A stretch of 64,000 nt of DNA from a virus. Each line of letters opens with the position of its first letter. Position 1 is the stretch's first letter. The notes under the pieces were generated by a model. The model was not told the origin of the DNA. It saw only the letters and a list, made by a program, of their open reading frames with translations, and did no database searches. Positions 1,926 to 43,400 of the stretch are shown here, one piece after another. The position numbers were made by a program, and so were the translations under genes. The stretch is from positions 1 to 64,000 of the IMG/VR virus record IMGVR_UViG_3300004369_000001. The stretch is one strand, 5' to 3'.

Positions 1926-4900
1926 TCAAGTAGCCAAAGCAATTGATCTAAAGTCCATGATTTGAGGGACAATAGCCTGGTTTCTAGACTTCATAACAAT
2001 CTTGACTTGGAAAGAGTTAAAACTTAGACCTGTCTTCTCATATGTATAATCTCTAAATTCAAAGACATCAGAAGCTGAGATCTCAGCAATCGGGAAGACT
2101 TCAATCCAGTTAACAGTTTCAACATCAACATCAGCACCCGATTCAAATGCTTTGATGTAGACACGAATTTCCACACCTTGAGGTCTGTAGGCACCAAAGT
2201 CAATCTTCAGAGTCCTAGACAGTTGCGCTAGGTTTGCAATTCTCGTAAGATAAACTGCATCGTTTTGGTCTCCAACTGGAAGCAGAGAAACATCAGACTG
2301 AGTATCAATTAGAGAGTTAATACCCAAAGATTGAGGACCACCTGGCCAAGAGTTGATTCTATTACTGACACAAATCAGAGATGTGCGATCAAGGTCAACG
2401 TATGGTGAGAGGTTGGTATTCTCAGTTTCCATGGCAATGTCAAGGCTGATGGACTTGTTACCACCAAGTTTGTTACTCTCGTTAACTTGAGAGCAAACCA
2501 TTTGAGGAGTTACAAAGTAGTTTTCAACGTTGAGCGTAATATCGTAATACTGACCATTGTTGACAAAAGATGCCTGGTCAATTACGGATGTGCCATCGCC
2601 AACAGATGTTGCTGTCGTAGTATTTACACGAGCAGCCATCGATGTTTCTGGGAAAATCATGGTAGCGATCGAAGGACGCAGTGTCTCAAATTGGAAGTTT
2701 TGAGAAGCAAGGACGTTTCCACCACCACCTCGGATACCATTTGTGGCAACCGATGTTGTATTTAGTAAGTAATGATCCAACCAGGGATCGTCAATACTTG
2801 AGTGGACCTTGTTGATTTCCGTCAGAGGAATGCCATCAAAGTTGTAGCAGAAGACGGTTGCACCAGTTGGGTGATCAACGTCTGCAGTGCCATTAGCACC
2901 TCTACCATTAGTGGCAACAGTGATTACTTGACCGTTGGAGGAGATTGCAGAATACTGAATGATCTCATTACCAATGATCAGATAACCAGGATTGAGGTTA
3001 CCGATAGAAGCACCATTTACGAATGTGTGGAATCCACCAGCAGTCTCAACGTTAATTGAAGTTGCCCCTGCAGAGAGAGAAGATGTCAAAGTTGTAGGAG
3101 GCACTTCGGAAACCACTCCACTGATTTCCACGTTGTTGGTGCGTTGGTGCATACAATGATTCTTGTGATACACCAGGACCTTTCTATCCTTACTCTGATA
3201 CGAAGGTGCAGCAGTCGGGAATTGGTTGTAGGTGTCGCCAGAGTATGCGATGCTAGTAATAGTAGCGGTCACAACACCACCATTCTCAGAAATTGTATCG
3301 GACAGGTCGAATGCCTTATCGACATAATTTACATAAAGGACTGGGTTTGCTGCAGGGTTGCCATCGGGAAGGGTGTCACCTGTTTGATAGAAAGCAGTAA
3401 CAGTCGCAGTAGCATTGGATGTAGATCCAGCAATAATATCTACCTCTGTGGTGGGACCACCAGGAGCTCCAGGTCTGGGAGAGAAGTCACCGTTGGAAAC
3501 GGTGGACAGTTGGAAGATTGCAGTGGATTGGGAGGAAATAATTCCTTGGAATGCATCTCCATTTCCATCCAAGAAACCAGCAGACCATGTGCCTTGAATG
3601 TCGGTAAGAGTAATTGTCTCTGGATCTGTGGTTGAGTCGAAAGCAACAACTGTGCCCTCTGCATTAGAAGGAGACTGCTTCAATCGAGCACCAATCGTAT
3701 AGGAGTTATTTGTGCCAGCGGGAAGCGAAAGCACTTGCTCAGGTTGAATCGTGACCAGAGGATTATTCTTCAAAGTCGTGAAACCACCATTGGTCTCTCC
3801 CATAGAGACATTATCCAGAGTTATTGTGCCAGTAGGAGATGTAAAGTTTGCCTTATAAATTGTAAACTTCAAGTCCTCATACTGGTCAGCAGTCCAGGTA
3901 GATGCGTTTTGTGACTTAAAGAGCACACCTGCATATGGTTGCTCGGAGATCGTCCTATTACCAGACTTTTCAACGTCACCCATTCTGGAGATCCAGACTT
4001 GATATTCGTTGGAGTCGGACAGGAGCACAAAGCAGTATTCAACAGACTGTTTGATGTATACAGGGGATCTAAATTCAAATCGTGTTGGAATTTCAGCACT
4101 TTCTGAGATCTCAACATCTTCAGCATTGATCGTGATGTCCGACAGAGGCAGAATATCCTTGGTGGGATTGCCATTCTCCATTGTGCGAATTTGCATGGAG
4201 ATTGGAATATTGCCATCTCTAGACCTGAAGAAGATATCAACACCAGTGATGAAGATACCACCTTCCTCATCGACAATGAAGGATTGTGCCAGAGGGTCAT
4301 ACCAACCAATCTGACGAGTCTCTGATCTTGTGCCAGTAACGATAGTCCTTTCATCGTTAACTGTGTCTCTGACGATCTCAGCATTTCTAACTGCCAGAAT
4401 ATTCTCTCTAACAGTCTGAAGAATACCAGTTGCTTTATATTCTGTGTCTGCCGAAGAATCAACAGCACCAGCAATTCTGCTATTCTGAGCGTTAGTCGTG
4501 AAACGCACAGTCCTTGTGCCAGTTGCCCAACGTGGATTTGAATCGATCTTGGGACTGGGGATAAAGAATGTGCCTTTGAAGTTACCGACGTTATCTGTCA
4601 GGAGACGACGATCTTTAACATATGCTGCAGCGCCAGAAGTCAAACCAACCAACAACTCACCAATTTTCACGTTGCCTTGATATGTGCCATTTGCTGTTGC
4701 TGCCATCTCATTGATGTCAACATTCAGATACGGCGTATTCGATGCGTAGGAAGATGGCAGAGTCTCTGTGCCTTGACCATATGGGTTGGTTACATACCCG
4801 TCATCGGCAGATGCAACCTTCAATCTCACCTTAGATTCCGTGCCGATGACAGTTTCACCGACAACAAAGGGAATCTGGTTGCTATTGTCAATAGTGGGAT

Positions 4901-7900
4901 CGGGAGGAATTGTGGTTGCAGGGATGGAGTTGCCCTCGGAGCTGGGAGCAATGACATCTCTAGCAACGTTGCTGTTTGTGCCAGACTTATTTAACTCGAT
5001 CACCTTCGGGGTGATGTATGCACTCACATCCACACCGTCAAAGAAGCAATAGATTCTGGATCTGGGCTTCATTCTATAAACATCAAATGCCAGGTTTCTG
5101 GAGCGAATCCAGGGCACTGCTGTTTGGGACAGCATGGAGTCACCCATGGATCTACGCTCAATCCTGGGCACAACTCTTGTGCGAATACCTTGACGAGACT
5201 GGTTGGATCTCACTTGGAAAGTGCGTCTATCGTGAATGAATTCCAGACCTCTACCTCTGGTGCCAACCCAACCACCACCGCCATGGGTGCTACCAGATCT
5301 ATTGATGATTCTGTCAGTTGAAACCAGAGATTCGGAAGACCAGTTAGTCCTCCAACCACCCCATTGAATAGGTGCAAATCCTGTATTGGGATCAATATTC
5401 AATTCTCTAGAAACACTGGAGAAGTCACCTTCGACGTTTTCCACACGAGCTGGGAGACGGTTTGTTTCCAACCAGTCATCGGAAGAGGGTGTCAAGTCAA
5501 TACGACCAATAAAGGTAAAGACGTTAAATGGGTTGACGTTTTCGCTTCTAGATGCATATGGTTGCTTAACCACCTCAACACTTTCATAGGGAAGCATCGC
5601 AATATTTGCTGGGGTAACAACAATATTCTGAGACTTCTGAGTATTGATTTGTAGGGGGACGTTAGATGTATAGTGGGACGGACGAAGAATACCCTCTTGG
5701 AAATCGAGAGAGCACTTGTAGTCAGCACTATTGACATCACCAATCTTATGATCGGTAAAGTCATCCACCACAAATCCATTCTTCAAACGATCGAAACCGT
5801 TTTCGTCATAAGATCTTGTAGCATCTGTTTGCACTTCAAGAAGTGAAAGTGCTGTATAGTATTCGACGTTATTGATTCTCTTCTCCAGATCACCAATATC
5901 CTTCATCGTATAACGACGAATTACTTCCTGGGTGATGATGGTATCCCTTTGGGGATCATACATATACGGTTTGTGCTTGAAGATCGCCAGGCACATTGCA
6001 TTCTGAATATTTTCTGGCTCTTCGGGATTCTCAGCAGAGATACCGTATTGTAGTCTTAGTTTGTTGTCGTGGGTGAGGAATAGTTTATCTGTCCTTGGCA
6101 GATAGTATTCGTAGTCGCAACGGAATTCCGTTTCTGCTTTAGGAATATCAAACAGAGTAGCAACTGCAGCATTTCCAGCACCTTGATTTGTTGTGCTGAA
6201 TACACGAGCATCGAAATCGAGGGTTGCACAAGTCACCTCAAATGGACCTGTCACCGTGCCGTTACCTGTCGCCAATTCTCCAACTGCAGGACGGAAGTCA
6301 ATTTGGTCTCTAACATTCTTAGTAGATCCCTGCAGAATAGGTGCAGGAATTTCATCGAAGTCGATACCAGTATATGACTGTGCAGAGAAATAGTCACCAG
6401 ATGCTTCATGGATGAAGTAGTCGAAGACAATCATCAATTGTCTGGTCGGTGGAGTAACTCCAGGTTGTCTGACCAGTTTGGAGACGTTATAGAAGAAAGG
6501 TGTTTGACCAGAATTGAGAGTGAAGAGGTCAGTAACAACCTTACTACCCTTAACTACAGATCCATCAGCGTCGTCGATAGTTGCTCTCAGGACATTTCCA
6601 TCAGAGTCTTCACCGATGATTCTTTCGCCAGGATTGAATTCGATATTATTGAGGTTGACATTATAAAGACGCAGTGTTGCGTTAATGAAGCTAACAACAG
6701 TTGCTCTAGCACCAGATGTCTCGCCAGTGATAACAGTGCCAGGAGCAAAGAAAACTGCTTCACTCAGCACACTATATGGAATTTGAGGTGCTCCGTCAGT
6801 TTCCGATTCATATACGGCGTGAATCTTGTAGACATCGTTTAGACCGAAGGAGATCTCCTGGTCTTCGATACGAGTGCCATATAGGTTGCCATAAAGCAGA
6901 CCATACTTTTGAATATCGTTATTCTTACTGGTGCGAGTGACTTTAAGGGCACGCATCTTAGATGCGGTCTTAATCTTTCTGCTCACGATATTCTTAGATA
7001 CGAGAGCAGTCAGTTTTATTGTTGTCACTCCAGTCAAACCATCAATGGTCATAGACTGGCGATTAGCACCGAAGGTAACTGTTAGCGTGCCCGCTTCATC
7101 CAGTGCTTCCAGATCCAAGTTGTCGCCAACAGCGTATGAAGATCCAGACTGTGCAAGAATTGTAAGTTGATAGTTTTCATCATCGAGTGAAGCAAACTGC
7201 TCAGATTCTGGCAGTGCCACAGTCAAACCGCCAGACACAACTGTCTTATTTGTGAATGTGCGGTAGACGAAGAAAGATTCGTCGCTTAGAGACTTCATCG
7301 ACTCTCTGGGGAGATCGACGCTCAACTGACCCGAAGGTTGAGTTGTGTTGAAGACAAACGGTCTATATCTAACAACGGTGGTGTAATTGCCATCTGCAAT
7401 GCTGCCTTTAGTTAAAGCAGTATCGAGCAAGGCTGTTTGTGCCTGATAATCGAATACTGGAGCGCCACCAACGTTATTGCCTGATGTGTGGTTGATAGTA
7501 GACTTTGTGATCTTCTTAACAATGAGACTTGTGTCACCTTCAAATCCAGATTCACCATCTGGGGAAAGCACGTCTCCAGGACGAAGATCTTCTTCAAACT
7601 TAGATCCATTGAGACCAGTAATAATGGCACCAGACTGGTCAACAGTTATGGTTGATCCACGCACAGCCTGGGCATCATTCAGTAGAAGGTTAGCAACAAA
7701 CGAGACGGCACTGTTGCTGTTATAACCAACAGCGGATCTTGCATCAGTTAACTGATAACTGAAAACAGCGTTAATTGTGCCGACAACTCTACCGTCCTTG
7801 GTGATAACTTCACCATCGGTAAAGATACCTGATACTTGCTCAAGACCAACATAAGTGCCACTTATATCTGTAGTGGCAAATCCTCTAGCACCAGAAATTC

Positions 7901-9362
7901 TACCAACCAGCAAGTCTCCAGGAGACACTGGGGAATTGCCAGCATCGAAGTTGAGTGCAGTAAACATCTGCACGTCCATTACATAGAGATCCCAAATGCC
8001 AGTTGCAGATTTCTGCAGTTGCACGCAGCGACATCTGCCAATTTTCTGACCCGTTACAGTAGATCCACCATTTAGAGTCCAACCATCATGAAAATCGAGG
8101 ACTTGATATGCATCGGAAACACCTTCACCAGTAATATCAGGCCATCCATAAACATCATATACCTTCATGTATTGTCCCCATTCAATAGGGACAATGGCGT
8201 TGTTTACACCAGTAAAGTCTCTGGGTTTTTTGATATCGACATACTGGGGAGTAAGAAACTCTGTCCTATATCCTCTAATATATGCTTTACCAGGAGATAC
8301 TTCAATAGCAGCATATTCTTCACTGGCAGATTGCCCATCTCTGGAAACCTGACCAGGACCATACACACCGTTATTGAATCCGTCGTTTCTATGCTCTCTT
8401 AATTTAACATCGAATGTATCGATAACATAATCACCAGACTCTTCGTAAGTGCGACGAGCGAGTGATTTCTCAAGGACAGAGTAAGCCGTATCATTAACGA
8501 ATTGCTCAATCTTAGAATCTCTGATTCTGACCAATTCGATAAAATTCTTGTCAGTCTCGTCTTCAATTGGTTTCTTGACGAGTTGTGTGCTGATCTTGAA
8601 TCGGTGAGATCCAGGAGCAGAATAGTTTGATGTGCCAGCAGCGTTGTCATTCAGAGTCGGATCGTCTTCTGGAGTGACAATAGATTCCGAGACTTCAAGA
8701 CCAATCCTATAAGAGGGGTTATTAGTATATTGATCGAGGATGATATAAGATGATGGGACATTGATAAAATGTCCACGAATGAAGTAGACACCATTATTAA
8801 CGTATGCCGTAGCAGCAACTGCAGTAGCATTAACTGGGAGGAGTTGAGCGAAAGGAGATCCAACCTCAATAAGAGTTGTGCCGAAGGTCAGCTCTGAATC
8901 GGAAATGAGCTGCTCATTCTCTTGGAAACCTTTGACGCTGGTGGCAGAAACTGTATCTCCAGAATCGATATACTTCACATAAAGTGTGACGTATCCCTTA
9001 GACGATTCTGCAGCAGAGATGGAATAAAGGACCTTTGCTCGAATACCACTCGTTAGACCAGAAATGATCTTACCGTTGAGTTGAGTTCTGTAAGTTTCAA
9101 CGTCAACACCCAAGAATGCCTGCTGCAGAATAACTGCCTGCACATTTAGGTCATAACCCACTTGTCCAGGGATAACCATCGCACCTTCTTTGAAGAAGTG
9201 CTGACCCATGGACTCAATCTGATTCTGCAGAATGCTCTGCATAGTCGTGAGTTCTCTTGCCTGAATTGGGAATCCAGGTCTATACAACACTCGATAAAAA
9301 TTCTTATCCTTATCGAAGTCGTCGAAATACGGACTAATGTTGAGGTTGGTATTTTGTGGCAT
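1926..9362 (-). CDS. Large virion structural protein (DUF4815 / VrlC-like)
   Basis: 2478 aa. N-terminus MPQNTNLNISPYFDDFDKDKNFYRVLYRPGFPIQARELTTMQSILQNQIE; also RLKNGFVVDDF and DPLAQSF motifs characteristic of this family. Follows gp8. Confidence 0.85.
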   Translation of the reverse strand: MPQNTNLNISPYFDDFDKDKNFYRVLYRPGFPIQARELTTMQSILQNQIESMGQHFFKEGAMVIPGQVGYDLNVQAVILQQAFLGVDVETYRTQLNGKIISGLTSGIRAKVLYSISAAESSKGYVTLYVKYIDSGDTVSATSVKGFQENEQLISDSELTFGTTLIEVGSPFAQLLPVNATAVAATAYVNNGVYFIRGHFINVPSSYIILDQYTNNPSYRIGLEVSESIVTPEDDPTLNDNAAGTSNYSAPGSHRFKISTQLVKKPIEDETDKNFIELVRIRDSKIEQFVNDTAYSVLEKSLARRTYEESGDYVIDTFDVKLREHRNDGFNNGVYGPGQVSRDGQSASEEYAAIEVSPGKAYIRGYRTEFLTPQYVDIKKPRDFTGVNNAIVPIEWGQYMKVYDVYGWPDITGEGVSDAYQVLDFHDGWTLNGGSTVTGQKIGRCRCVQLQKSATGIWDLYVMDVQMFTALNFDAGNSPVSPGDLLVGRISGARGFATTDISGTYVGLEQVSGIFTDGEVITKDGRVVGTINAVFSYQLTDARSAVGYNSNSAVSFVANLLLNDAQAVRGSTITVDQSGAIITGLNGSKFEEDLRPGDVLSPDGESGFEGDTSLIVKKITKSTINHTSGNNVGGAPVFDYQAQTALLDTALTKGSIADGNYTTVVRYRPFVFNTTQPSGQLSVDLPRESMKSLSDESFFVYRTFTNKTVVSGGLTVALPESEQFASLDDENYQLTILAQSGSSYAVGDNLDLEALDEAGTLTVTFGANRQSMTIDGLTGVTTIKLTALVSKNIVSRKIKTASKMRALKVTRTSKNNDIQKYGLLYGNLYGTRIEDQEISFGLNDVYKIHAVYESETDGAPQIPYSVLSEAVFFAPGTVITGETSGARATVVSFINATLRLYNVNLNNIEFNPGERIIGEDSDGNVLRATIDDADGSVVKGSKVVTDLFTLNSGQTPFFYNVSKLVRQPGVTPPTRQLMIVFDYFIHEASGDYFSAQSYTGIDFDEIPAPILQGSTKNVRDQIDFRPAVGELATGNGTVTGPFEVTCATLDFDARVFSTTNQGAGNAAVATLFDIPKAETEFRCDYEYYLPRTDKLFLTHDNKLRLQYGISAENPEEPENIQNAMCLAIFKHKPYMYDPQRDTIITQEVIRRYTMKDIGDLEKRINNVEYYTALSLLEVQTDATRSYDENGFDRLKNGFVVDDFTDHKIGDVNSADYKCSLDFQEGILRPSHYTSNVPLQINTQKSQNIVVTPANIAMLPYESVEVVKQPYASRSENVNPFNVFTFIGRIDLTPSSDDWLETNRLPARVENVEGDFSSVSRELNIDPNTGFAPIQWGGWRTNWSSESLVSTDRIINRSGSTHGGGGWVGTRGRGLEFIHDRRTFQVRSNQSRQGIRTRVVPRIERRSMGDSMLSQTAVPWIRSRNLAFDVYRMKPRSRIYCFFDGVDVSAYITPKVIELNKSGTNSNVARDVIAPSSEGNSIPATTIPPDPTIDNSNQIPFVVGETVIGTESKVRLKVASADDGYVTNPYGQGTETLPSSYASNTPYLNVDINEMAATANGTYQGNVKIGELLVGLTSGAAAYVKDRRLLTDNVGNFKGTFFIPSPKIDSNPRWATGTRTVRFTTNAQNSRIAGAVDSSADTEYKATGILQTVRENILAVRNAEIVRDTVNDERTIVTGTRSETRQIGWYDPLAQSFIVDEEGGIFITGVDIFFRSRDGNIPISMQIRTMENGNPTKDILPLSDITINAEDVEISESAEIPTRFEFRSPVYIKQSVEYCFVLLSDSNEYQVWISRMGDVEKSGNRTISEQPYAGVLFKSQNASTWTADQYEDLKFTIYKANFTSPTGTITLDNVSMGETNGGFTTLKNNPLVTIQPEQVLSLPAGTNNSYTIGARLKQSPSNAEGTVVAFDSTTDPETITLTDIQGTWSAGFLDGNGDAFQGIISSQSTAIFQLSTVSNGDFSPRPGAPGGPTTEVDIIAGSTSNATATVTAFYQTGDTLPDGNPAANPVLYVNYVDKAFDLSDTISENGGVVTATITSIAYSGDTYNQFPTAAPSYQSKDRKVLVYHKNHCMHQRTNNVEISGVVSEVPPTTLTSSLSAGATSINVETAGGFHTFVNGASIGNLNPGYLIIGNEIIQYSAISSNGQVITVATNGRGANGTADVDHPTGATVFCYNFDGIPLTEINKVHSSIDDPWLDHYLLNTTSVATNGIRGGGGNVLASQNFQFETLRPSIATMIFPETSMAARVNTTTATSVGDGTSVIDQASFVNNGQYYDITLNVENYFVTPQMVCSQVNESNKLGGNKSISLDIAMETENTNLSPYVDLDRTSLICVSNRINSWPGGPQSLGINSLIDTQSDVSLLPVGDQNDAVYLTRIANLAQLSRTLKIDFGAYRPQGVEIRVYIKAFESGADVDVETVNWIEVFPIAEISASDVFEFRDYTYEKTGLSFNSFQVKIVMKSRNQAIVPQIMDFRSIALAT

Positions 9363-15879: not shown

Positions 15880-18800
15880 GCGTCGTCAAAAATTTGAGCA
15901 GGACTGAAGTTGGTGATTATTGTCGTGCCAATCTGGACCGACAGGATTGCGGAGTAACTGTAAACAGGTGTTGCGCCTGCTGCAGTGATTGCGACTCTAT
16001 ATTCATCACCATCATCTTGTTGTGTAGTAATACCTGTGTTGAAGATTGCTGAGTTGGCACCAACGATGTTAGACCATGAGGTCTGACCATATTCTTTCTT
16101 CTGCCACTGGTAATTCAATGTAGTTGTATTTATCGCCCCATCAGATGCCCTTCTAAATTCACCCACAACGGTGAAGGATGCAGTCTGACCTTGGTTGACT
16201 GTCACGTTAACGGGGTTGCTGAGGATTGCAATCAGACCTTCATCAACGATGATTGGGTTACCCGATGGATCGGTTGCCTCACCTGCGTAGATGTCCTGAC
16301 CGTTATTCACGGGCTCGCCCACAGGAGTTACAAAATCATCATCGACTGTGGTCTCGATCTGCACAACAGGAAGACCATATCCGACACCACTAGATTTAAC
16401 TTCAACTCTAGAGACTCCCATCATCGGGGTCACGCGAGCATCAAAACCAGTAGAGGAAATGATTTCAACGTTTGGTTTCGAGGTATATCCATCTCCAGGG
16501 TTGGTGATGCTAGCAGTGACGACTTGTCCGAGCGTGATTTCGGAAAGTGCCTCGGCATTACGACCCTTGACCGATCCTGTGTATTCAAAGGTAATCAAGG
16601 AGTTGGAAGATTCGATCAGAGCGACCTCACGAGCGAATTCTTCACCCTCAATTTCCAATTGGTCTCCAGACTCAATTGGAGGCACAACCGTTGCAGAGAT
16701 CACGTCAGCGTCGGATCCAATGTAGGAGAATCCAACAAATGTAGATCCAGCGCGAGGCACTTCAGAGAAGATGATTCTAGATCCGACAATTTCGTAAGAA
16801 ATACCAGGCTCTTGGATGATACCATTGAGAGAGATTAGGATATTATTCTCTGGCAGGATGGTGGCAGAAGAGACACCTTCTGTCAGTGTCAGGGAGTAGA
16901 AGATGCCATCCAACTTCAGGTTGAATGAAGACTTCAGCGAGTCAAACTCAAAACTGATATCATCAAGTTGACGGAGTTTGCCGATATAGTAACCGATGAA
17001 TTCGGATCCAATCTCGGGTGGCTCGGTAAACTGAATCTGGTCGGAGAATGCTGTATACGCTGCTCCAGGGGGTTGCAGGATGCCATTCACGAAGATTAGC
17101 ATGTGACCAGCAGGATCTGGGAAGTATGCCTGACCATTCTCGATAGACAGAGAGAAGTCAGCTTGCTGTCCATCAAATCCACGGAAGTAGCGATCGACTC
17201 TGCCAGTCAGAGTTGATGCCGTAGTAACACCAGCAGCCCAACCATCGTCACTTCTGAGGCTCATGTTGTTGGTGAATGCACCAACTGCTTGCTCCACCCA
17301 AATTCTAGCGGTAATACCATTCTGCTCAACAGCAGCAACCTTGCCATAAGATTGGTAGGCGGTCTCAGTTACACTAGAAACAGTTGCGTAGATTGTCGGG
17401 AATGCTGTGCCAACTTCAAACTTACCGATGTTATTGCCAGAGATATTCAGATCGGAAACAGGAGCGCCAGATCCAACAGGTTGGATATTGGCAATCCAAA
17501 GTTTGTGAGGTGTGACTGGATTTGTGGTGCCGTCATATGGTTGATACTTAGTGACGATAGCGGTGAATCCAGGATTCTTGATAACCGTGCCTTGCAGCAG
17601 GTTAACCTCATCTCCAGGTCTGAAAGTTGTAGCAATGCCAGCCTCAGTAAATGTAGAAGCAATATTCAATTCATAGACAGCGACGCCATGGATAATGTCG
17701 TTAACTTCAATGACGCCATTCGGTTGATAGATGCCTTGGACATCGAGAATGTAGTCAGTGAGGCTACCGTAGATAATATCGTTGCTTTCCCAACCGCTCT
17801 GGATTGTCTCAACATCCATAACAACACGACCACCTTCGTTACTGATGATGGATCCTGTCTTATTGTTGTAGAAGACGATATCTGCTTCGGTGTTGTCTGC
17901 TTTCTTGAAGATCTTGTCACCGTTAGCATAATCACCAAGATCAACGTTGATCAACATACGATCAGTCATAACCTCAATGGTGCCTTCTGTGAGGGAATCT
18001 TCTCCCACGAGGACATTGCCATTGACCCAAGCACCGCCAGTCTTGTCAATTACTTTAACAATCGCATAGCTATTGTTGTCATAGTAATTGACTTGTAGAA
18101 TTTGACCGATTGAGAGATTGTCACCGCTAAGATGAATTCTCTCACCATTCTCGAATGTGGAAGCCTGAGTATCTGTAAGGCTGAGACGGATATACATGAA
18201 GGTTTCTTTGATCACAGCAGTGTTAAACGACTGTGCAGAAATCTCAGCATGGACATCAGAAGTTGTGCCATACAGCACGTCAGCATTCAGAATTCCACCT
18301 TGGATCGGAGTTGTGTTGTCTGGGTTTCCATAAGTTGTAGTTTCTCTAACGATGCCAGATCTGACAACAACTTGGAAAAGGTGCTGATTTGTATCAGATG
18401 TGTCCAGAGCAAACGGTTGATATCTTGCATCATGTGTGCTATATTCACCAATCTCGAAGAAGGTAGAATCGGCATTGAGGACATAGTAATATGTCTGATT
18501 GATACCACTCAGAAGATTGCCAGATGTGGGAATATATTGGACAACATCGCCACGACGGAAGAAGTTGGCACGGTTGATTCTAACTCTGTATTCTGCTCTA
18601 TCATATCCAACTGGAACTGTTGGGGTGAGCACCACAAGTTGAGGATCTGTATTCCAATCATATCCCTCATCATAGGTTGTGCTAAGATTCACAACGTCAG
18701 TGGAAGGCACAAATGTTGTCTTGGTTTCTGTGGGGAATTGCGATCTCTCCAGAGCATACTCGAATGGGTTGATGGAAGAATCCATGTCATACTCAGTGGA

Positions 18801-21800
18801 TTCTTGATCCCACTCAGGTCTATTGGGTGGAATGTAGATGCCAGGAGTTGTGATGTAGGGTTGCCAACCAGCAGAGGTGGGAGAATAGATGATTGATTTC
18901 ACATACTCTCTGATACGAGTTAGGTGGTAGATCAGGTGTGTGCGAGTAACGTTTGTGTAGACAATGAAGTTGCCATCGCCATCAAACCAAGTTGACAGTT
19001 TATCAAACGCAGCGTTATTGCCTTTGGTGATGATATCGTAGATTACAGCGTCAATAACTTGATCTGCAAAGTCAGCATCGCCTGCATATGCGGGATAGAA
19101 GGTGACTGTCTGATCGTATGCTCTCTTCTTGATTGCTTCTCTGTTGAAGTGGATCAGGCGTGCATCAACCTTATTGCTGTTAGTGCCAGAGGCAAAGGCA
19201 GTCATATAGAGGTCAAAGAGGGTGTTAATTGCCTGACGCACGTCATAGCAGCTACCCATGTTGTATTCGGTTGGGGCAATATATGTGCCATCAACCTTGG
19301 TAACAGTAGATCCGTAGTAATTCAGACCGTTACCTGCAATGCCTTCATTAACACCTTGGATAAGGATGTCCATGAGTGTTGTGATGGCACCTGCTTGAGT
19401 TGCACATGCTTGATTCCAATCTGCCGTGCCCGTGCTGCCCACACTGAAGTCCCAAGTAACATCCAGATCTCTGATTGGGAGGTCTCCAGAATACTTACAT
19501 GGCCAAATATTTGGCAGAGATCCTGTGTAGGTGGCAGCACTCTTAGGATATGTAACAAGATTTCCACCACTAGGATCGGCAATCGTATCAGTTACGACTT
19601 GGATGAGTGCATTGACTTCGGTATCCACATCGGTGTCGCTGATTGCTGTGTCAATCGCTTTAACGCTGTAGGTGTTACCAGGAGAAACTGTTGGGTTGCC
19701 GCCTTGATAGATTTGCTTAGCAATATCTCTAGCGGTGTTGAAGATCCAGATGGACTCAGTGCTCTGAGAAGTAATATGCTGAAGATTGCCTTGGGAAATA
19801 TAGAATTCTGCAGATGTTACCATCATGTTATCGCCACCATTCTGCAGGTTCCAAGACATCCAGTAGATTAGATCTGCAACGTCGTGGACGCAGTTGATGT
19901 TACCACCAGGGATGGTCAGACTGGGATATTGAGCAACTCCACGCAGGACTGCTTCCTCAGCGATGAAACGGACGTTTTCTTCAATAGATCTTGCAGCAGC
20001 AATTCTGTTGTCGCTGGCACCATTTCTCTCGTAAGATTCAAATGTATAGGAGCTATCATTGTGACCGTCAATGTTGAAACGACCGAAACCGTTTCTAATT
20101 GTCAGAATTGCCATATCTCTGGCAAACTTAAACACAGTCTTAGTTGCTTCTTCCTCACCTTCAATGTGTGAGAGGAATCCATCTTCTCTAATGTAGAGTT
20201 TACCTGCTTCGTAGATTTCGGCGTTGCCACCAAATCTGATGTCATGGACCAGAGCATCAAGAATTCCAACAACGTCATCAATGCAATTTTGCTGACCACC
20301 AGGGACTTGGAAGTCTGCAAACTTGGACAAGTCATTCATCATGCCAACTGCTTCCTTGGCAATGATGTGCTTGTTGCGCTCGATCATATTTGCAGCGTCA
20401 ACATAGCTATTGGACTGAGATCTTGCCTGGTCGTATTGCTTGGGATCTAGAGTAACATCAGAATCTCTATATGCAGATCTGTTTGTGTATACTGCAGTGT
20501 AGTATTCATCTTGATAGATGGCAGCAGCACCCTGCCCAGCAGCAGTCTCTCCAGGAGACAGCAGCAGATTATTCACTGCCTTCTCACAAAGAGTCTTGGC
20601 AAACTCAAACGCATCGAGCATCGGTTGCAACTCATTTGTAATAAAGAGAATCTCGTTATCACTATTGAGATAGAAATCAATAGCAGCTTGTGTCTGATAG
20701 TTTCCACCAGTTGCTAAGTCGCCAATGATTGCGGGCAAGATGTGTTCCTTGAGGTCTCTGATGCAAGCAGATCTATCGGGAATGATCAAAGTCTGGACGT
20801 TATTGCCACCAAGACTAATGGTATACAGATTCTCGATATGTCCGACTGTCTCCTCGGCAATATAATCGCGGTTTTTCCAGATCAGATCACCAGCGTTTCT
20901 GAATCTATGACCAGTGGGTGCCAACTCATCAGCAATTGTATCACCCAGAGTATCAAGGCGAGACTCAACTGCAGATGTGCCACTCAGAGAATGGGGGACA
21001 CGCAGTTTTGTCGTATATGTGCCAGTCAGATCAGTATCGCTAGTGCTAATAACATACTGACACAGTTTGACAACTTCTCTCCAAGCATAGAGTGTTTGAA
21101 GCAGCTCGTTACCGATAAACTTAAGATCACCACCCTTGTTTCTATAGAAGCGGGAATTTACAATGACGTTGTAGTTACCACCATCTCTAAGGTCAGAAAC
21201 GATTGCAGGGATAATATAGTCCTTTGTATCTCGGATACAAATGTTAGTGCCATCCAAACCACCCTGATAGTCACCAGGGATGATGAAGTCTGGATAATGT
21301 GCCTGCATAATGCCCACTGCTTCTTCAGCAATCCACGCACGGTTAAGATTGATGATATCAGCAGCATCTTTAGCGAGTTGATTACCAAGATCAACCTCTT
21401 CAATCGTGATACGTTTTGCTTCGTAGTCAATAGCGCCAAGAGTAGCAGAAGAGAGGTTAGTATCCTCAAGTGTGGCATACACATCACCAGTGCCAACAAT
21501 GATTGGTTGCTGAGCATTCAGACCCAGGACAACGCCAAGGCGAGTGAAGTCAACTGAGGTTGCAACAGTGAATGCTGCAGTGAAATCTGCATAACCCTTT
21601 CTAACGCAGATGTTATCGAGGTAACCCTCAAAGTTATTTGCACCAGCAGCATCAGCGCCAATGTGCATTTCTTGACTGATGCCATAGTTGTTATTATCTA
21701 CGGCACTTGCCACTTCAGCACCATTCAGGAAAATGCGAATGGTTGATGTTGTGACATCTTTAGCCACTGCAATGTGATACCATGTGTCGGTTGCCATTGC

Positions 21801-24800
21801 AGCAGTAGTGGTCTGCACAACAGTTACCCCGTTTTGAGACAGAGTGATGTTGTTGCCACTATTACCAACTGTCAGATCACAACCCAGCGTATCCACAGCA
21901 TCGAGACTATTATCAAACAAAGTCTGGGTGCCATTAAAGTTGTCGAAACGGAATCTACCTTCAAAGGTGAATGATCCATTTTCAAATCCAAAGTCATATG
22001 TGCGAGTTGCTTCTCTGATGTAAGAAGATCCACCAACAACAAACTCATAGCTTGATGTGTTATTGAGGATCGTGCTGTCATATACGATGTTACTCAGATT
22101 GACAGAGTTGACCTCAAGCGTGCTGTTTGTAATGTATTCGCCAATCTGGAAAGTCCCAGTAACGTTGCCTGTATAGATCCACTTCAGACCAGAGTTTGCA
22201 CCTTTAATGATTGCACTTGCACCAGAAGTCATGCCCTTGAGCACTTCATCAGCGAAGAAGAGATTGTTGCCACCATCTGCATTTTTGTATGCAAACTTAG
22301 TGACGCGAATAACTTCACCAGTCTGATAACCACCGTCGGTGATGATGTATTCGGTGGGAGCAGTGCGAGTAGCGTGCGACATGTTGCCGTTGGCATACGA
22401 CAACGTATAGACACTCAGGAGACTCTGGAAGAGCGATGTTTGAGTGTTGCAGGGGGTGAGTGACTGATCGGGTGTAATTGTGGTATTAAAGAATTGCTTT
22501 TTACCATGGACACCAGTAATAGACACTCTCGGGTAGAAGTAATCTCCCTCATCGTGGGTGAAGTGCAGATGCTGCAGAATGACCTGGGATCCATTACCAA
22601 ATCCAACGGTCCCATCAACTGTTAGAGTGATTGTGCCATTTACCTCGTCATAAGTAGCACTCATGACGTTATGAGTTGTGGTTGCAGTGCTAACTTTACC
22701 AGATCCAACGTAGGTGAAGGAATCTCCAGGTTGGAGGGTCACAATCGGAGCAGCAACCGTAAATGTGTTGCCAGTCAGATTGGAAACTGCATGGGAGGTG
22801 GCAGAGTTTCTAATGACATCTTGTGCAATAGTAGATACTTCTGCATAAATGTCGGTAACTTGCTGTGCTATTGCTGTGGAGTTATCATACGCGATGGAAT
22901 ATGTGCCAGAGTCATAGACTCTGCTGTTTCCACCATATTTCATGTCGTAAGCAATTGCTTCGATAACATCTTTAATGTCGTCGATACAATCGGAATCATT
23001 GCCAGGAGAAACTGTAAATCCAGGATTCGCAGCCTTATAGACAAACAGTGCTTCAGCAGCAATCATCTCTTTGTTTCTGAGCAGCAGGTCTGCAGCGTCA
23101 ATGTATTCGCCGTTGTGAGCACCGCCGTAAGCAGCAACTGGATCTGCATAGAGACCAACAATCTTAGGACCACCAAGACCCTCGGAGGTGTAAGAGATTG
23201 CACCTGTCAGGTTGTGGGTATTCTCAGCAGACAGGGAGGTTGTGACAATATTTGCCAACTCTCTGACGGTTTGCTGGATATCCAAGCAATTGGTTAGACT
23301 CTGATTATTGCCATTTGCATAGTTGGTGTCATATGTATAACCAGGAGCAGCGCCACCATAAGTTGTGGGATCGTAGAGGACTTCAAGATCCTTAACAAAC
23401 ATAAGGTTATTCATGGCGTAATACATCATATCCCTTGCCTTATTCAGGGCAGTGATGGATTCGGGGACTTCGCCATACAAACCATTCAGCAGATACTCAC
23501 CAGTCTCATCGAAGTAGTTTTCTGCAAAGAATTGGGAGTTGAATTCGCCATTAGATCCAACGTCATTGGCGATAGCATCGACAAAGTAACCGATGTCACG
23601 TCTGCACTTATCTTGGTTGATTGTGAAGGAAGGATTAGATGCTTCTGGAGCATCGTTGAGGTTTCCAGCAGTAAGAGATTCATCCTGCCATGTCCAAATG
23701 GTAGTAACTGCTGCCCTTACATCACTACAAGACTCTGGGTCGTTGTTGGATGTATTGCTGCCAGGAGTGCCATAAGGATCACCAGGAGACTGGTCTGCAG
23801 TCAGAGATTCGTCAACATAACCTATTGCTTGATCTGCGCTGTTGACTGCTGTCCAGAGACCACCATAGTTATTTGTGATCGAGGCATCGACATACTCTTT
23901 TGCTTTACCGAGCATGTAGATCAACTCAGCAGTAACGCGATCGTAGCTGATGGCATTATTGGAGAAATACTCGTTGATCCACTTCAGGGCATACTGGTTA
24001 CCGCCAGAGTGTAGGTCAAGAGCCATGCACTCTGTCCAAAGTCTGATGTCTGCAAGATATCCATCCTTGTCACCTGCAAGCGTGCCAGGATACTGAGTCT
24101 TCATGTCATCATATGCATTCAAGACAATCTTGTCGAGATTCTTGAAGATGATACGAGTTGCGTCCTTGTATCTGGAAAGTGGATTTGTCTGGACATCGCC
24201 AGGATAGTAGAAGTCAGGATGGATAACAGCAATCCATCTTTCAGCTCTATCCACAATCTCATCTTTGTTGAGACGGATCAGACGAGCAGCATCAAATGCT
24301 CTTGGAGTAGCATTTGTCCTAACGTTGCTGTAGAAGAGGGATCTATTTCTGAGCTCATCTCCCTTAGCAAATACACCACCCTGCAGATTCTCATACTCAA
24401 TTTCAGTGCTTCTGATTTGCTCGAAGTCGAGGAAGTCTTCGTTGATTCTGGTCTCAGGATTATAAATCTCAACAGGAGTGATGCTAGACTGCGAGATATC
24501 ATCGAGGATGATATTCGGGTTTTGAATTGCAACAAGTCTCTCATAGATGAGACCGAAGAAAGTAGATCCAGCGTTGATGATCAGTGTGTCAACAGGTTGA
24601 CCATTATTGGGGTCGAGATAGGGACTGATAAAGATGATCTGGGAAACAATCTTACTTGTCGCTGAGTAGATATACTCATTGAGTTTTAGATCGAAGATGC
24701 CAGTTTCATACTTTGCTGTGCCTGATGTTTTGCTAACAAGCAGTGTGTCAGTGAGGTCTCCGTCTTCATCAATATTTGTAGACTCAACAATAGCAGTATC

Positions 24801-36255: not shown

Positions 36256-38337
36256 TCAGAAGCACTCGTCTAACTCGGGATACTGGAAAGTATCGGTGGG
36301 ATAATCAATGATATTTATTAGTGATGTGCCACCGCCAAAATTGAATCCATTGAAGTTATTTGGATCGAAAGATGGGATGGTAATATCGCTCACAGTGAAG
36401 TCAATTGGATTGACTTGTGGATTTAGAATGGTTGGATCTGTGCCAGGAGGCACGTTTAGGGATCCACCAGCAGGGTAAACCACAACTGGCACTCTTTGAG
36501 TGTCATCTGGAGTCAAAGCAATATTCAGAGGACCAACACAAACGATACCGTTTGTATAATCCACTGTGCCTACATTATTATTCAAAATTACTTCTTGCTC
36601 GTCTCTGACGGTGACAAGGATCATCCTTCCTCTGCCATCATCACGCAAGTTAACTGGGACGAGTGTTTGTGTTTGCTCCAGGCTGCTAAATGCAGGTGTC
36701 TGGATAAGTCCAGTGGTTACACCTGCCGCTACGAGGTCTTCAGTGTATCCAGTGGCATAGAATGTGCCAGATTTCACAACCGAGAAGGAAGGTAAGCAAC
36801 TTCCGCCATTTCCACCACCATCAGGTCCACCAGCGTAATCATCTGGGTTATAAAGAGCATTACCGAAGTCTAGGCACTGGTTAAATACCTGACCAAAATT
36901 GAAGTCGGTCAAGTTTTGACCCAGAGCAACTTGGGTTGTGTTGCCAGAGATGGACGGGTCGGAATTGTCGATCACAGCACCAAGTTTGGATGCCTCAATT
37001 CTTCCACCGTAACGGTTGGATGTGTTTTGTCTATTGTAGTTGTCAATATTCTTTAAGATCTTAGTTGCAAGATCATTTGAATTCAGATTCGTGTTATTGC
37101 CGTTGTAGTAAACATAGGTCTTAGGCAAGACGTAGAATACCTTCGGATCGATAACTTCAACACCAATGGAAGCAACGGCATATGCCTTGAGTTGATTCTT
37201 CAGTTTTGTTTTGGTTGTTTCATTAAGTGCAGATCCAGTTTGGGGTCTGACAGCAATATAGACCTTGCCGTAGATTGGTGGGTTTAGTCTTTCTCCACCA
37301 TAAGCAACAACACTCTTCGCCTGGGGATAGAGTTGTCTTACAATATTTTCATAATCCAACTCTGTAACAGCTCTGTTTTGAGTTGTATACAGTCTGGGAG
37401 CATTGTATTTGATCGACAGGGGAGTTTCTCTAGGCGTGCCGTCCCCAGCAGTCCTGACCGTGATGGTTTCGATCTGGGAAGATGCAATGACTCTACCTTG
37501 AGAATCGGTTGCTGTGCCAATGAATGTAAAGTCTCTGGAACCGTTTGCTTCTTCTCCTGCGGTCCTCACATAGTCAATTTTTACAAATTCGCCGTCGATC
37601 AATCTACGACCCAACACGCCATCACCAAAGACAAGGCGATACCTAAGGTCATCTACCTCTTCTAGGAAGTAAATACGGGAGTTTGAGTCCAAAGCAACTG
37701 CGTTGGTTGCTCTATTGTAGATGTCGATCTCACTTGATTGAATGGAAGGAGAGACATAAACAATCATTCTCTCGGTGTCAACATCTTCACTAGGAATAAC
37801 ATAATTTTGTGTCTTTGTGTTATTGACTGTGAATGAGTATGTTAAGAGATTGCCTTGATAAACTGGAATGCACTTAAACGAAGCAATACCAGTCTGTTGA
37901 TCAACAGAAGCAGTTTGTTGTGTGAGCAGGGTGAAAATATAGTTTTCGTTGACCGTCTCTGCAACGAAAGAATCGCCCTTTCTAATATTTACAAAGTCTG
38001 GAAAGGTCAGTCCATCGGATCCAATGTTTGTCTGGATATTGACAGTGACCTCTGCCATTGCGGCTTTGATGGAACGAGGTGTATAGTTAAGTTGCTTCGC
38101 AATTTTAACGATATTGTCTCTTACAGTAGCAGTCTCAAGGAATGCTTCATTCAAAGCCATGTTGGCATTGAATGCTGTATAGTAGGTATTATATGCTAGG
38201 ATATCGAGCAGATATGAAGCAGCAGATCCCTCAAAATCGTAGTCGGTAAATTCACTACGAGTTCTTAGGTAGGATCTAATAGACTCTTTAATTTCAAAAA
38301 AGTCTAAAGACGTTACTTCTGAGGGAATCGCTGACAT
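36256..38337 (-). CDS. gp6: Baseplate wedge subunit gp6
   Basis: LDFFEIKESIRSYL...FTDYDFEGS...LLDILAYNTYY..FNANM..NE.FL.TA, QNRAVT..DY and GKVYIA motifs; follows gp25. Confidence 0.93.
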   Translation of the reverse strand: MSAIPSEVTSLDFFEIKESIRSYLRTRSEFTDYDFEGSAASYLLDILAYNTYYTAFNANMALNEAFLETATVRDNIVKIAKQLNYTPRSIKAAMAEVTVNIQTNIGSDGLTFPDFVNIRKGDSFVAETVNENYIFTLLTQQTASVDQQTGIASFKCIPVYQGNLLTYSFTVNNTKTQNYVIPSEDVDTERMIVYVSPSIQSSEIDIYNRATNAVALDSNSRIYFLEEVDDLRYRLVFGDGVLGRRLIDGEFVKIDYVRTAGEEANGSRDFTFIGTATDSQGRVIASSQIETITVRTAGDGTPRETPLSIKYNAPRLYTTQNRAVTELDYENIVRQLYPQAKSVVAYGGERLNPPIYGKVYIAVRPQTGSALNETTKTKLKNQLKAYAVASIGVEVIDPKVFYVLPKTYVYYNGNNTNLNSNDLATKILKNIDNYNRQNTSNRYGGRIEASKLGAVIDNSDPSISGNTTQVALGQNLTDFNFGQVFNQCLDFGNALYNPDDYAGGPDGGGNGGSCLPSFSVVKSGTFYATGYTEDLVAAGVTTGLIQTPAFSSLEQTQTLVPVNLRDDGRGRMILVTVRDEQEVILNNNVGTVDYTNGIVCVGPLNIALTPDDTQRVPVVVYPAGGSLNVPPGTDPTILNPQVNPIDFTVSDITIPSFDPNNFNGFNFGGGTSLINIIDYPTDTFQYPELDECF

Positions 38338-39877: not shown

Positions 39878-40408
39878 TCATCCAGACCAGACTGTCATCG
39901 ACCCATATGCAACAACACTGCTGCAGGGATATGACCATCCTGGGAATCCAACGCCCAATGGATCAAGAATTCTTATCACAAGCCTCTTCAGGGCAAACGT
40001 GAAGAGAGTGGTCGGATATGCCGTCCTAGAGTGTCCAACGCCCTTATCCTCTAGAGTTAGCACAGAGCATGGAATAGGGGTCGGCACGGGGCACACAGCG
40101 TTGCCACAGGGGCACATATAGATGATAATGTTAGTGCAGGTGCTCGGGTGTGGAATAAACTTATCTCCTGCCAGCATGATTGGGAATCCATGCACCAAAA
40201 CAGTTGCCCTATCTGGTGTGATTGGGAAAATCGGTATTAGATTCAAAGGTGGCCACCAACAGGAATATTCTTTGATACGAATAGTCCTAGGTTTTGGTGG
40301 TGTCTTACATGGTTGAGTGCTATGGACCACAGGAGGCAAACACAATCCGTGTCCTGAGCAAGGAAGACCATTTAATGCTGCAACTGGTTTTACTAATCCG
40401 AATGGCAT
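39878..40408 (-). CDS. PAAR-like tail-spike tip protein (gp5.4-like), Cys-rich
   Basis: CSGHG, TVLVHGFPIMLAGD.FIPH, GH.R and C.SVVAYGS.TV motifs; start at 40408 overlaps the upstream stop (TAATG). Confidence 0.75.
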   Translation of the reverse strand: MPFGLVKPVAALNGLPCSGHGLCLPPVVHSTQPCKTPPKPRTIRIKEYSCWWPPLNLIPIFPITPDRATVLVHGFPIMLAGDKFIPHPSTCTNIIIYMCPCGNAVCPVPTPIPCSVLTLEDKGVGHSRTAYPTTLFTFALKRLVIRILDPLGVGFPGWSYPCSSVVAYGSMTVWSG

Positions 40409-43400
40409 TAGGTTACTCCCTCCAATGATCTGCCAATGTCGTATGGATACTGATCTTGACATTCATCGAAATATGGATTGCCCAAATTTCGGATTGTCTT
40501 ACTAAGTGCAGTTGTACCACCCGACAAATAATTCAAAACTTTGAATGTGCCCGAATATGGACCCATCTTCATTCTATATTTACCTTGGGTGATCCTACTA
40601 GGGTCAATAGCGATGGAAACGTCCGCAACACTCTCCAATGCAATACATCCATTACACAATCCAGTGCCACTGTTGTCTTGCTGAGAGAAGAAGAGCGAAT
40701 ATGGAGTCGCTGAAGTTGGTGGAGTGATTTCGTAGTAAGTTAGACCAGGAAGACCATTACCATTTGCGTCATAACCACAAAATACGTCCAAAGGACCATC
40801 TGTATTAGATCCCTTCCTCACATAGCGGTCCCAGCAGTCCTCAGGGATGCCTAGAGGGTCTGTAGGACACTCATTATCGTTAACACGGATAGAAGTGTAG
40901 ACTGCGCTGTCCTGCTCCTCCACAAAACCTTCTTCATCGGCAAGTGGATCTGCGGGATTGTAAGAATATGTGGTCCAGAATCCATAAGTGGAGTTTGGAG
41001 TATATTCGACGTTATCTCCCAGCCAAAGTTGGAATTGCTCGAATTCTGTGAAATTACTGCGATTATAGTCAAACGTATTTTCATCAGATCCCGTTGGGAC
41101 GAAAATTAGGTCATTGTTGTTGTTTGGATCACGATAGCAACGACCTGAGACAGTTCCACGACTACAATTCCAAGTTTTTGTGCCACCAGACACTTTTCTA
41201 CGCTCAGTCAAGCGTGGTTTCGGTAAGCCATTCAAAAATTCCATAAATTGCTGACCCTGAGATCCAGTTGTGGTCCCTTCAATGCTCAAATTGACTTGGA
41301 ATTGCGCTTCCTCGTCTTTTGGCGCACAATATTTGTATGGGAGGTAACCAAAAGCGACTGTTTTGCCATATGTGCGTGATTCTTCGTCTTCATCCGCTGC
41401 CATATAGGCACATGGCATCTGAAACCACTTCTTGATATTGTAAATAATCGGTTGAGCGACGTAAATGCAGCGATTTCCGCCAAAAGCACCATACAAACCG
41501 TTGAAAGCATCGGTAGTTTTCTCTGCTGTCTGAATATCTTGCTGAATTTCCGAGTGATACTTGCTCTGATATTCAGCAACGCCAGAATTTACATTCAAAA
41601 CGTCAAACATTCCGCTTGGAGGGAAGGCTTTTGTCAATGGCATCCCCATTGTGATGTCAATACAGTCAGCAGGGAGTGCTTGGCAGAAAGCAAATTGACC
41701 ATCTGGGTCAACTTCCGCCAATTCCATGTATGTGATTGGAATATTTGTCTTATTCCCCTCAGTCAAAACGCCAAAACTCTGCTTAATAATGTCTTGGAAG
41801 GGTGTCATGTCCTTTCCAAGCGTATCTGAGTCCAACATCCCACTCAAAGCATCGGGTTGTTTGCGAATACTCTCGTTATCGAGCTTAGATTCTGCCTCAA
41901 CTTGCAATCCTTGCTCGGCAATATAGACAACTGGCGGGTTTTGGGGGTCATAACCACTGCCACGATTGGTAATTGTGACCTTTCTGATGATTCCCGAGGG
42001 AGAAATGTCCGTGATTTTCGCTTCTGCTGCTTTATATTGCAAAACTGTGTCAAATTCACGCGATCTTTTGTTATAACCTTGCGCTACTTTGTTAAGAACT
42101 CGTCTCTGTTGGGCAGATCCAGTGCGATTTGTCTCCAATTGTGGGAATTGATTGATGTTTTCCTCGTATTGTGACTTGAATCCACGCCTAACTCCCTCTG
42201 CAGTGTCTTGTGCAGAGAATTCTTCGAGGATTTGTGGGTCGGAAATGACGATTTGGGGGTTGATATACCCCACTCCACCGTTGATGATGCTGATTTCTAC
42301 CACTTCACCCTGGGTATTGACCACTGCTTCTGCCTCAGCAAGGTCCAAAGTGCGGGTTGGTATCAATGCTTGAGGGTCAATCTTGACTTTATAGTATTGA
42401 ATATTCTTCTCAAACTCGTAAACACCCCAAAATGCGACCTTATCTGCGATGCCATACCCTGCCAAGACCACTGCAGTAGCACCATCTGCCGCAGTAATCG
42501 CCTGTTCGTAGGTAAATTTGTTGCCATCTACACCTTCATAGCGCGATAGGTCCATATAACCGCACTTCATTTTGTCTCCAAAGTAGAAAACGCGGTTGAT
42601 CAACCACCCTTGGAAGATCTCACCCTTCTTAAAACTACCCGAAGATGAGGTATAGCGGAAAAAGATACGCCTATCATTAGTGCCAGCAGTGGAAAATGAC
42701 TCCTCTAGACCACTACCCCCAGGTCCTTCCAGGGTAATCTTGGACTTTGTAGTCTTCCATGCATCTTCTCTGATCTGATAGAAGTGCGAATAGAATTCGG
42801 TATTGGGTATGCAGCAAGGATATGACTTTCCAGCCCCCCCAGTGCCTTCTGTGGTGCAAGTTGCGTTTGGACAACATGCTCTATCACTCAATTCATACTG
42901 AATGCCAAAGATCGGACCATTCCAGGGGTAGGTTGTGTCATACAGGTAATACATGAATTGGGAGTCATACCCATATTGAAACCCTAGGAATCGTGGCACA
43001 GCACCCTTGATGGCACCATTCAGACCATACAACCACTCGAAACGTGCTTCTTCATTGAGAATGGTAACACCAGATCCACCACCTTCAACGTTATCATTCA
43101 ATGGCCATCCATATCCATCGACAGCAGGGACACCAATGTCACTATTTCTGCGATATCTGAGGTATGAGTAGGTAGTAGTATTCCATGCATACCACCCAGA
43201 CTTGTCAATACACTGCCCTGTAGGACCAATCTTACCAATATCGATAATTCTCTTACTGCCTGCATCAGGTGCGTCACCACCAAAAACATAGCAGAGGATA
43301 CCCTGATACTCATATTCGCCATTCATGGCGTCTTTGGGGGCGATAGGACCGCCACTCAGGTTGACTTCGCCAGCAGGTGTGGTGGTATAGAAGTTGTCAG

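Follow-up and report, generated by a model that had tools for sequence, protein, structure and literature searches.

Phycobiliprotein-derived domains with a conserved cysteine site in giant baseplate and tail proteins of cyanophages

Eight related domains in a giant gp7-position protein

We analyzed a 64,000-nt window, positions 1 to 64,000 of the viral record IMGVR_UViG_3300004369_000001, which is 107,783 bp long and 58% complete. The window encodes a giant protein of 6791 amino acids (aa) at the gp7 position among baseplate genes, and this protein contains eight domains derived from phycobiliproteins (PBPs), six of which keep the cysteine that carries the pigment in PBPs (Table 1). The domains lie both in tandem and nested in the outer part of the protein, adjoining lectin-like modules.

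An earlier note on this DNA, made by reading the letters and the ORF translations, had quoted six repeat strings, and all six occur exactly in the 6791-aa ORF. The C-x-x-D cysteines it listed are those numbered in Table 1; the last four are 158, 160 and 131 residues apart, in line with the claimed spacing of 130-160 aa. Its estimate of 7-8 helical repeats was right in that the repeats are real, and can now be made exact: there are eight domains, one of them split by another. The repeats resemble each other, with pairwise E-values down to 9e-15 when chunks of the region were searched by BLAST against the protein. A hidden Markov model (HMM) of the family gave nine matches in this ORF, the full ones with E of 1e-12 to 1e-28, and left the remaining ORFs of the window unmatched; nine matches make eight domains because those at residues 3979-4019 and 4201-4303 are the halves of a single split domain, A. 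Read from the sequence, domain B is nested within the B-E loop of domain A, and the same order (helices A/B alone, a full domain, helices E-H alone) recurs in orthologues of the 6791-aa protein. Domain B is Cys-less, with a degenerate attachment site that reads Y-L-A-D in the alignment, and it is the closest relative of domain H (residues 4033-4133 versus 5698-5796, BLAST E 8e-7). Insertions seem to recur at the B-E loop, as in the PB-loop of ApcE. In some orthologues the equivalent of domain G is split there by an insertion of 100-300 aa (L020, aa 2483-2522 and 2832-2923; L063, aa 2535-2567 and 2669-2765).

Cys and Asp of the site are present in six of the eight domains, and Arg in three of these (C-R-R-D, C-I-R-D and C-I-R-D). 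Since only 26 of the 6791 residues are Cys (0.38%), a Cys column shared by six of eight aligned domains is not chance (~9e-14 by our own arithmetic).

Table 1. PBP-like domains and the neighboring lectin-like module of the 6791-aa protein. Positions are those of the window; HMM, family hidden Markov model.
Feature	Residues	Window positions	Strand	Attachment site	Cys codon	Basis
Giant gp7-position baseplate or virion protein, 6791 aa		15876..36251	-			ORF list
Domain A, N-terminal half, helices A/B only	3979-4019	24195..24317	-			HMM positions 4-42 only
Domain B, complete PBP-like domain	4026-4133	23853..24176	-			HMM positions 8-116, E 3e-12
Domain A, C-terminal half, helices E-H	4201-4303	23343..23651	-	K-C4216-R-R-D	23604-23606	HMM positions 31-127, E 8e-23
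Domain C	4379-4506	22734..23117	-	D-C4422-I-D-D	22986-22988	HMM E 5e-25
Domain D	4955-5111	20919..21389	-	I-C5005-I-R-D	21237-21239	Domain chosen for modelling
Domain E	5110-5262	20466..20924	-	A-C5163-I-R-D	20763-20765	HMM E 1e-27
Domain F	5275-5407	20031..20429	-	N-C5323-I-D-D	20283-20285	HMM E 1e-28
Domain G	5409-5544	19620..20027	-	PGGN-I-N-C5454-V-H-D	19890-19892	HMM E 4e-23
Domain H	5687-5823	18783..19193	-	Cys site deleted		HMM E 5e-13
Concanavalin-A-like lectin domain (Laminin_G_3), between domains C and D	~4753-4881	21609..21995	-			Pfam PF13385, E 1e-12, 48.9 bits

Homology to phycobiliproteins

The kinship with PBPs proposed in the earlier note is borne out by sequence and by fold, and the Cys and Asp of the repeats align with the bilin-binding Cys84 and Asp87. 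The Pfam Phycobilisome profile PF00502 matches residues 3950-5850 with 53.3 bits (E 3.9e-14, cut-off 22.2); on single domains it is borderline (22.0, 19.0 and 14.8 bits), the best single match being domain G (22.0 bits, E 1.8e-4, profile positions 28-70). When residues 4950-5850 were searched by phmmer as a single sequence, no PBP was matched among PDB sequences; profiles are needed to see the relationship. Against a set of 177,635 PDB sequences, a profile of the eight window repeats matched almost only PBPs (CpcA, E 4.7e-5), and a larger profile of 83 phage repeats, taken from the window and 76 related viral contigs, found 58 sequences at E <=0.01, every one a PBP (best E 8.8e-7); these phage-repeat profiles matched no haem globin among the PDB sequences. 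The similarity extends from helices A/B to E, with K-C-x-R-D-I of the profile aligned on K83-C84-A-R86-D87-I of CpcA. Identity of the phage domains to PBPs is 13-23%, and relative to PBPs they have a 7-residue gap between the PG(G)N loop and the chromophore-site Cys. Of the pattern that the note had likened to PBPs, then, the Cys and Asp line up, and the spacing from the PGGN loop does not.

A non-globin fold, named beforehand as an outcome against the idea, was not what AlphaFold2 returned: the models have a PBP-type globin core. Residues 4950-5545, modelled with 41 orthologues, reached pLDDT 75, and domain D alone, modelled with 83 repeats, reached pLDDT 91 and pTM 0.88. Foldseek placed PBPs first (TM 0.59-0.73, probability 1.0), and VIA-align superposed 137 residues of the domain D model on a PBP at Z 17.5 and rmsd 1.9 A, with residues 6-162 of the model placed on residues 31-177 of the PBP beta chain. 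A fold search of 48,161 chains, run without Foldseek, returned PBPs or ApcE at ranks 1-8 (Z 15.8-13.2), followed by globin-coupled sensors, RsbR and photocobilin domains (Z 12.6-10.8). The X-Y hairpin is missing: the alignments begin near PBP residue 31, no more than some eight residues come before the first helix, and the domains follow directly on one another. Together, the sequence profiles and the fold alignments of the models identify the domains as homologues of PBPs in which the core helices A/B, E, F', G and H are retained and the X-Y hairpin is absent. In PBPs that hairpin forms the alpha/beta monomer, which leads on to (alpha-beta)3 rings.

That the resemblance arose by chance or convergence is close to refuted. 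Such an origin would suit single repeats that score at most 22.0 bits, at or under the Pfam cut-off, the single-sequence PDB search without a PBP, and the low identity; it does not suit two independent profiles that match PBPs almost exclusively, PBPs at the top of the fold search run without Foldseek, and a functional motif aligned residue for residue.

Three known systems help to place the domains: (i) PBP alpha and beta subunits (PF00502: CpcA/B, CpeA/B, ApcA/B and cryptophyte beta) share the globin-like core (Z 15.8-17.5, rmsd 1.9-2.7 A), and their Cys84, Arg86 and Asp87 coincide with the phage Cys, Arg and Asp. They are free proteins of ~160 aa, whereas the phage domains occur as eight copies, and elsewhere up to 35, in tandem or nested within giant virion proteins, have no X-Y hairpin and seven residues fewer before the Cys, and in gp7-type copies often replace the Arg. 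(ii) The PB domain of ApcE (LCM) also sets a PBP fold inside a large multidomain polypeptide and carries a B-E loop insertion (4xxi_A is the structural match, at Z 14.9 and rmsd 1.9 A). In ApcE a single PBP domain precedes the linker repeats, the protein resides in the phycobilisome core and its Cys is elsewhere, in contrast to phage domains that keep the Cys84 position within a virion protein. ApcE attaches its own bilin without a lyase, which gives a precedent for self-loading of the phage domains. (iii) Sensor globins and photocobilin (globin-coupled sensors and the RsbR N-domain among them) have the same superfold (Z 12.6-10.8) and show it at work as a signal-input module; they differ from the phage domains in showing no detected profile similarity, in holding haem, no cofactor, or B12 plus biliverdin, and in not being found in virions. 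A full-text literature search, with most subscription journals outside its coverage, found no published description of PBP-like domains in cyanophages.

A cyanophage family with a conserved Cys-Arg-Asp site

The eight-repeat profile, searched against 1.84 billion proteins, defines a family of at least 1256 representative proteins at E <=1e-3 (835 at E <=1e-10), many of them giants with up to 35 copies per protein. By tblastn, three family members matched 251-366 of 50,697 phage records, and all matched records are Synechococcus or Prochlorococcus phages, phages named 'Cyanophage', or marine single-cell virus records. Annotations given to the carrier proteins are gp7-like, 'short tail fibre', 'tail protein' or 'tail fiber'; one carrier belongs to S-SKS1, outside Kyanoviridae. 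Fold matches in BFVD were likewise to tail proteins of cyanophages or uncultured phages only, followed by a sharp drop in score. A strict back-translated DNA motif matched at least 120 viral contigs and, among 185,579 prokaryote species genomes, five contigs from three uncultured-bacterium assemblies; two of the five were checked and both are cyanophage DNA, one 99.9% identical to S-CREM1 and the other matching only cyanophage tail genes. The complete 364-kb viral genome IMGVR_UViG_3300021963_000021 (G001, L135), which may be a non-cyanophage carrier, has 11 PBP-like domains in three giant ORFs and keeps K-C-E-R-D-V-G-Y.

Bin contamination of this kind was seen in several public genomes, with cyanophage DNA in metagenome-assembled genomes labelled Acidimicrobiaceae, Rhodobacteraceae ('Water_Bin34') and Nanopelagicaceae (contigs L105, CAYVOK010000024.1, and L106-L108, FZLS010000xx; proteins P0113/P0165). 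One 'Nanopelagicaceae' protein is 65% identical to the short tail fibre of S-RSM4.

Conservation was measured in 1679 domains from 164 proteins, among the matches listed, with overall identity of ~25%. The most conserved positions are the Cys (97%), Arg+2 (93%), Asp+3 (99%), Asp+14 (98%) and Tyr+30 (98%); with Asn+20 these make up the conserved set of the family, which has no equivalent of a proximal His, and the consensus K-C-x-R-D-V-G-Y is close to K-C-A-R-D-I-G-Y of CpcA. Where the Cys is missing (43 domains), Arg occurs in 51% against 95% and Asp+3 in 74% against 100% (uncorrected for phylogeny), and the fold residues Asp+14 and Asn+20 are not lower. An aromatic (F, Y or W) stands in for the Cys in 26 of these 43, and Y or W does so in all 17 Cys-less gp7-type domains. 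The trio that contacts bilin in PBPs is thus kept or lost together, with an aromatic that could fill the pocket taking the place of the Cys. Nearer to the window, 41 orthologues show no variation at the Cys and Asp of domains D, E and F, nor at C56, R58 and D59 (model numbering) of domain D. Across the phage family, selection on the Cys84-x-Arg86-Asp87 site is strong. Two further cysteines considered as a second attachment site, C5064 in domain D and C5222 in domain E, are not conserved in orthologues and were set aside.

With the attachment Cys kept in six domains, the virion may be pigmented and light-responsive. We put the chance that the Cys-bearing domains bind bilin, which the conservation pattern would favor, somewhat short of even. 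The main rival, a substantial possibility though not a probable one, is that the host-captured PBP fold serves without a chromophore, giving the baseplate or fibres rigid helical spacers or surfaces for receptor binding, its Cys, Arg and Asp being kept for structural ends, for example a buried salt bridge or a disulfide between domains or subunits. The long tandem arrays, up to 35 per protein, do resemble other fibre repeats, the neighbors are lectin-like (Laminin_G_3, CBM_5_12, YHYH), the X-Y hairpin is missing and the B-E loop shortened, many gp7-type domains have Asp or His for Arg, and two of the eight domains of the 6791-aa protein have lost the site fully; nor is pigment known to have been reported on such virions. 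A purely structural module leaves unexplained why the three bilin-contact residues (97%, 93% and 99%) are the most conserved at ~25% identity, why the trio is lost jointly with the fold residues kept and pocket-filling aromatics in place of the Cys, and why the domains are restricted to cyanophages across unrelated tail genes, including those of the non-Kyanoviridae S-SKS1. In addition, a single Cys per domain, on the helix face that lines the pocket of PBPs, is a poor site for regular disulfides.

The site might instead hold a ligand other than bilin (another tetrapyrrole, a metal or a host surface molecule), or the Cys might act as a redox sensor in the manner of sensor globins. The rank of globin-coupled sensors, the RsbR non-haem globin and photocobilin as next-best structural matches (Z 12.6-10.8) speaks for this, and the variation among R, D and H at the Arg position suggests ligands that differ between domains. 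We consider it unlikely, in view of sequence profiles that match PBPs and no haem globins, a conserved set with no counterpart of the proximal His, and a K-C-x-R-D-I-G-Y string so near that of CpcA.

Bilin genes

The record carries cpeT outside the window (G000:C1:80271-80708, minus strand; locus L005:1489-1947). It encodes a divergent CpeT-type lyase of 152 aa, which PF06206 matches in two stretches of one frame (24.5 bits for the best stretch, 40.8 for both). The 107,783-bp fragment, which is 58% complete, yielded neither a bilin reductase nor a haem oxygenase. A search for relatives of CpeT gave a single cluster, and tblastn with the divergent CpeT of the record matched 135 records, which makes it too insensitive for a collection-wide count of co-occurrence. 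A complex prediction of domain D with the record's CpeT scored 0.00 ('no answer'), speaking neither for nor against binding.

Co-occurrence was scored for 23 genomes: 19 complete cyanophage genomes and two complete viral contigs scanned with the domain profile, and Syn19 and S-SM1 scored by tblastn matches only. CpeT was checked directly in 12 of the 23, and was taken for the others from Table 3 of Sullivan et al. 2010. Both CpeT and domains are present in 15 genomes, domains only in four, and neither in four (P-SSM2, S-SM2, S-SSM7 and S-PRM1); no genome has CpeT only. The association gives a one-sided Fisher value of ~0.008, uncorrected for phylogeny. The earlier note had proposed checking co-occurrence with cpeT and pebS: cpeT is found without the domains in 0/23, and pebS does not track them, being present in P-SSM2 and S-SSM7, which are devoid of domains. 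Contrary to that Table 3, Syn1 (GU071105.1, 19950-20462 and 21450-26207) has a clear CpeT ORF (E 1.5e-35), which lies directly upstream of a 4026-aa domain-bearing ORF. In S-PM2, cpeT (p215) lies 1.4 kb upstream of the domain-carrying p218. The S-PM2 record (AJ630128.1) also places 16 tRNA features inside the p218 coordinates, 165928-177267; these tRNA coordinates look displaced, since a 3792-aa frame with PBP-like domains is open across them.

The role of phage bilin genes is described as one that 'remains a mystery', and a T-type bilin lyase and bilin synthesis genes also occur in phages of Prochlorococcus hosts that have no phycobilisomes (PMC3037559). Both this puzzle and the co-occurrence with cpeT, sometimes adjacent, leave some room for a function in the infected cell, in which the domains would be decoys or sinks for bilins or lyases, or mimics engaging factors of phycobilisome assembly or degradation, and their place in the virion would be secondary. 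Such a function is quite improbable: every occurrence of the domains is within a giant baseplate or tail-fibre protein with homologues annotated as virion structural, a metabolic decoy needs no 6791-aa baseplate protein around it, and the X-Y hairpin used for joining PBP assemblies is missing. Mimicry of phycobilisome surfaces, which had been put forward in the earlier note, found no support.

Light-dependent adsorption and a proposed photoreceptor

Adsorption of P-HM1 and P-HM2 fails in the dark, P-SSM2 adsorbs in the dark, and adsorption of S-PM2 requires light although it does not require photosynthesis (PMC6628666). The domain profile finds six matches each in P-HM1 and P-HM2, 13 in S-PM2 and none in P-SSM2. 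The phenotypes thus fit the hypothesis of light gating in three to four phages, with three independent ones at most, and lend it indirect support. If bilin is bound, light gating of adsorption is its most likely use; taken overall, light-gated adsorption through the PBP-like domains is conceivable and still doubtful.

The boldest reading, at a probability of roughly one in five, is that cyanomyovirus particles bear covalent bilins on PBP-derived domains of baseplate and tail-fibre proteins, and that these act as photoreceptors permitting adsorption only in light. In the reading that we prefer, at odds somewhat short of even, each of the six Cys-bearing domains would bind a linear tetrapyrrole (bilin) through a thioether to the Cys, with the Asp holding the pyrrole nitrogens and the Arg, where present, holding a propionate. 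Loading would take place in the bilin-rich infected cell, ahead of baseplate assembly, and might be autocatalytic as in ApcE or proceed through host S/U-type lyases or the phage CpeT. If there are six gp7 copies per T4-type baseplate, as we assume, each baseplate would carry ~36 chromophores at its periphery. Light would then most likely drive a change in the baseplate or fibre that allows adsorption, in light only.

Several points weigh against bilin binding and the proposed photoreceptor. At the site itself, three of the six Cys-bearing domains have the Arg replaced (C-I-D-D, C-I-D-D and C-V-H-D), the position is conserved as Asp or His in orthologues (103 and 54 of 432 domains), a carboxylate there is unsuited to a propionate, and the 7-residue deletion adjoins the pocket. 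Among the bilin genes, T-type lyases (CpcT/CpeT) serve Cys-beta153 and not Cys82/84 (PMC10452541). The idea that pebS and ho1 track the domains is ruled out by P-SSM2 and S-SSM7, which have both genes and zero domains. Four genomes have the domains without CpeT, one of them the complete 364-kb IMGVR_UViG_3300021963_000021, in which psbA/psbD, hli and cpeT were not found. The domain-less genomes may represent just one or two clades, and the counts of co-occurrence and phenotype are small and uncorrected for phylogeny. Lastly, cyanophage particles are not known to have been described as coloured or fluorescent; by our own rough estimate, ~36-100 bilins per virion would give an absorbance below easy notice.

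Two cyanophage puzzles become testable with these domains: adsorption that needs light independently of photosynthesis (PMC6628666), and the purpose of the phage bilin lyase and synthesis genes (PMC3037559). A PBP-derived domain with a preserved site, present in more than 1000 virion proteins and confined to cyanophages, offers a concrete candidate answer to each. If pigment is bound, the domains would represent a photoreceptor class not seen before, in what would be the first pigmented or light-sensing virus particle, with consequences for diel infection dynamics in the ocean. Photoreceptors that gate adsorption would also give a purpose to the unexplained phage cpeT and perhaps to pebS, pcyA and ho1. 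Even without a ligand, a host light-harvesting fold has been re-used as a tandem and nested building block of phage tails.

Gene context and other modules of the 6791-aa protein

The gene order gp6-gp7-gp8 is present at the 6791-aa ORF: its upstream neighbor is a gp6-like baseplate wedge gene (36256-38337, phrog_219), and gp8/9/10-like genes (baseplate wedge or connector PHROGs) lie downstream on the other flank. T4 gp7 occupies the same slot between gp6-like and gp8/9/10-like genes; it differs from the cyanophage protein in having ~1000 aa and no known PBP-like domains. Homologues in cultured cyanophages are annotated as 'baseplate wedge initiator' or 'virion structural protein', and Pfam Baseplate_wedge gives a weak match to the protein (16.4 bits, E 0.006, below the cut-off of 27). 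A megablast of the region against the phage collection had no match, indicating no close cultured relative there; for the region of the 6791-aa protein the nearest cultured relative is P-TIM40, with 64% protein identity.

Besides the lectin domain of Table 1, the protein has a YHYH domain (E 9e-30) and a weak CBM_5_12 match (the modules lie at residues ~1343-1537, 2663-2693 and 4753-4881), and G-G-S-G-Y-type repeats are numerous towards both termini; together these suggest a carbohydrate-binding periphery. Upstream of the baseplate genes is a PAAR-motif-like ORF (window 39878-40462, minus strand, phrog_281, E 1e-18), and a 2478-aa ORF (window 1926-9362, minus strand) belongs to phrog_358, a PHROG family of unknown function.

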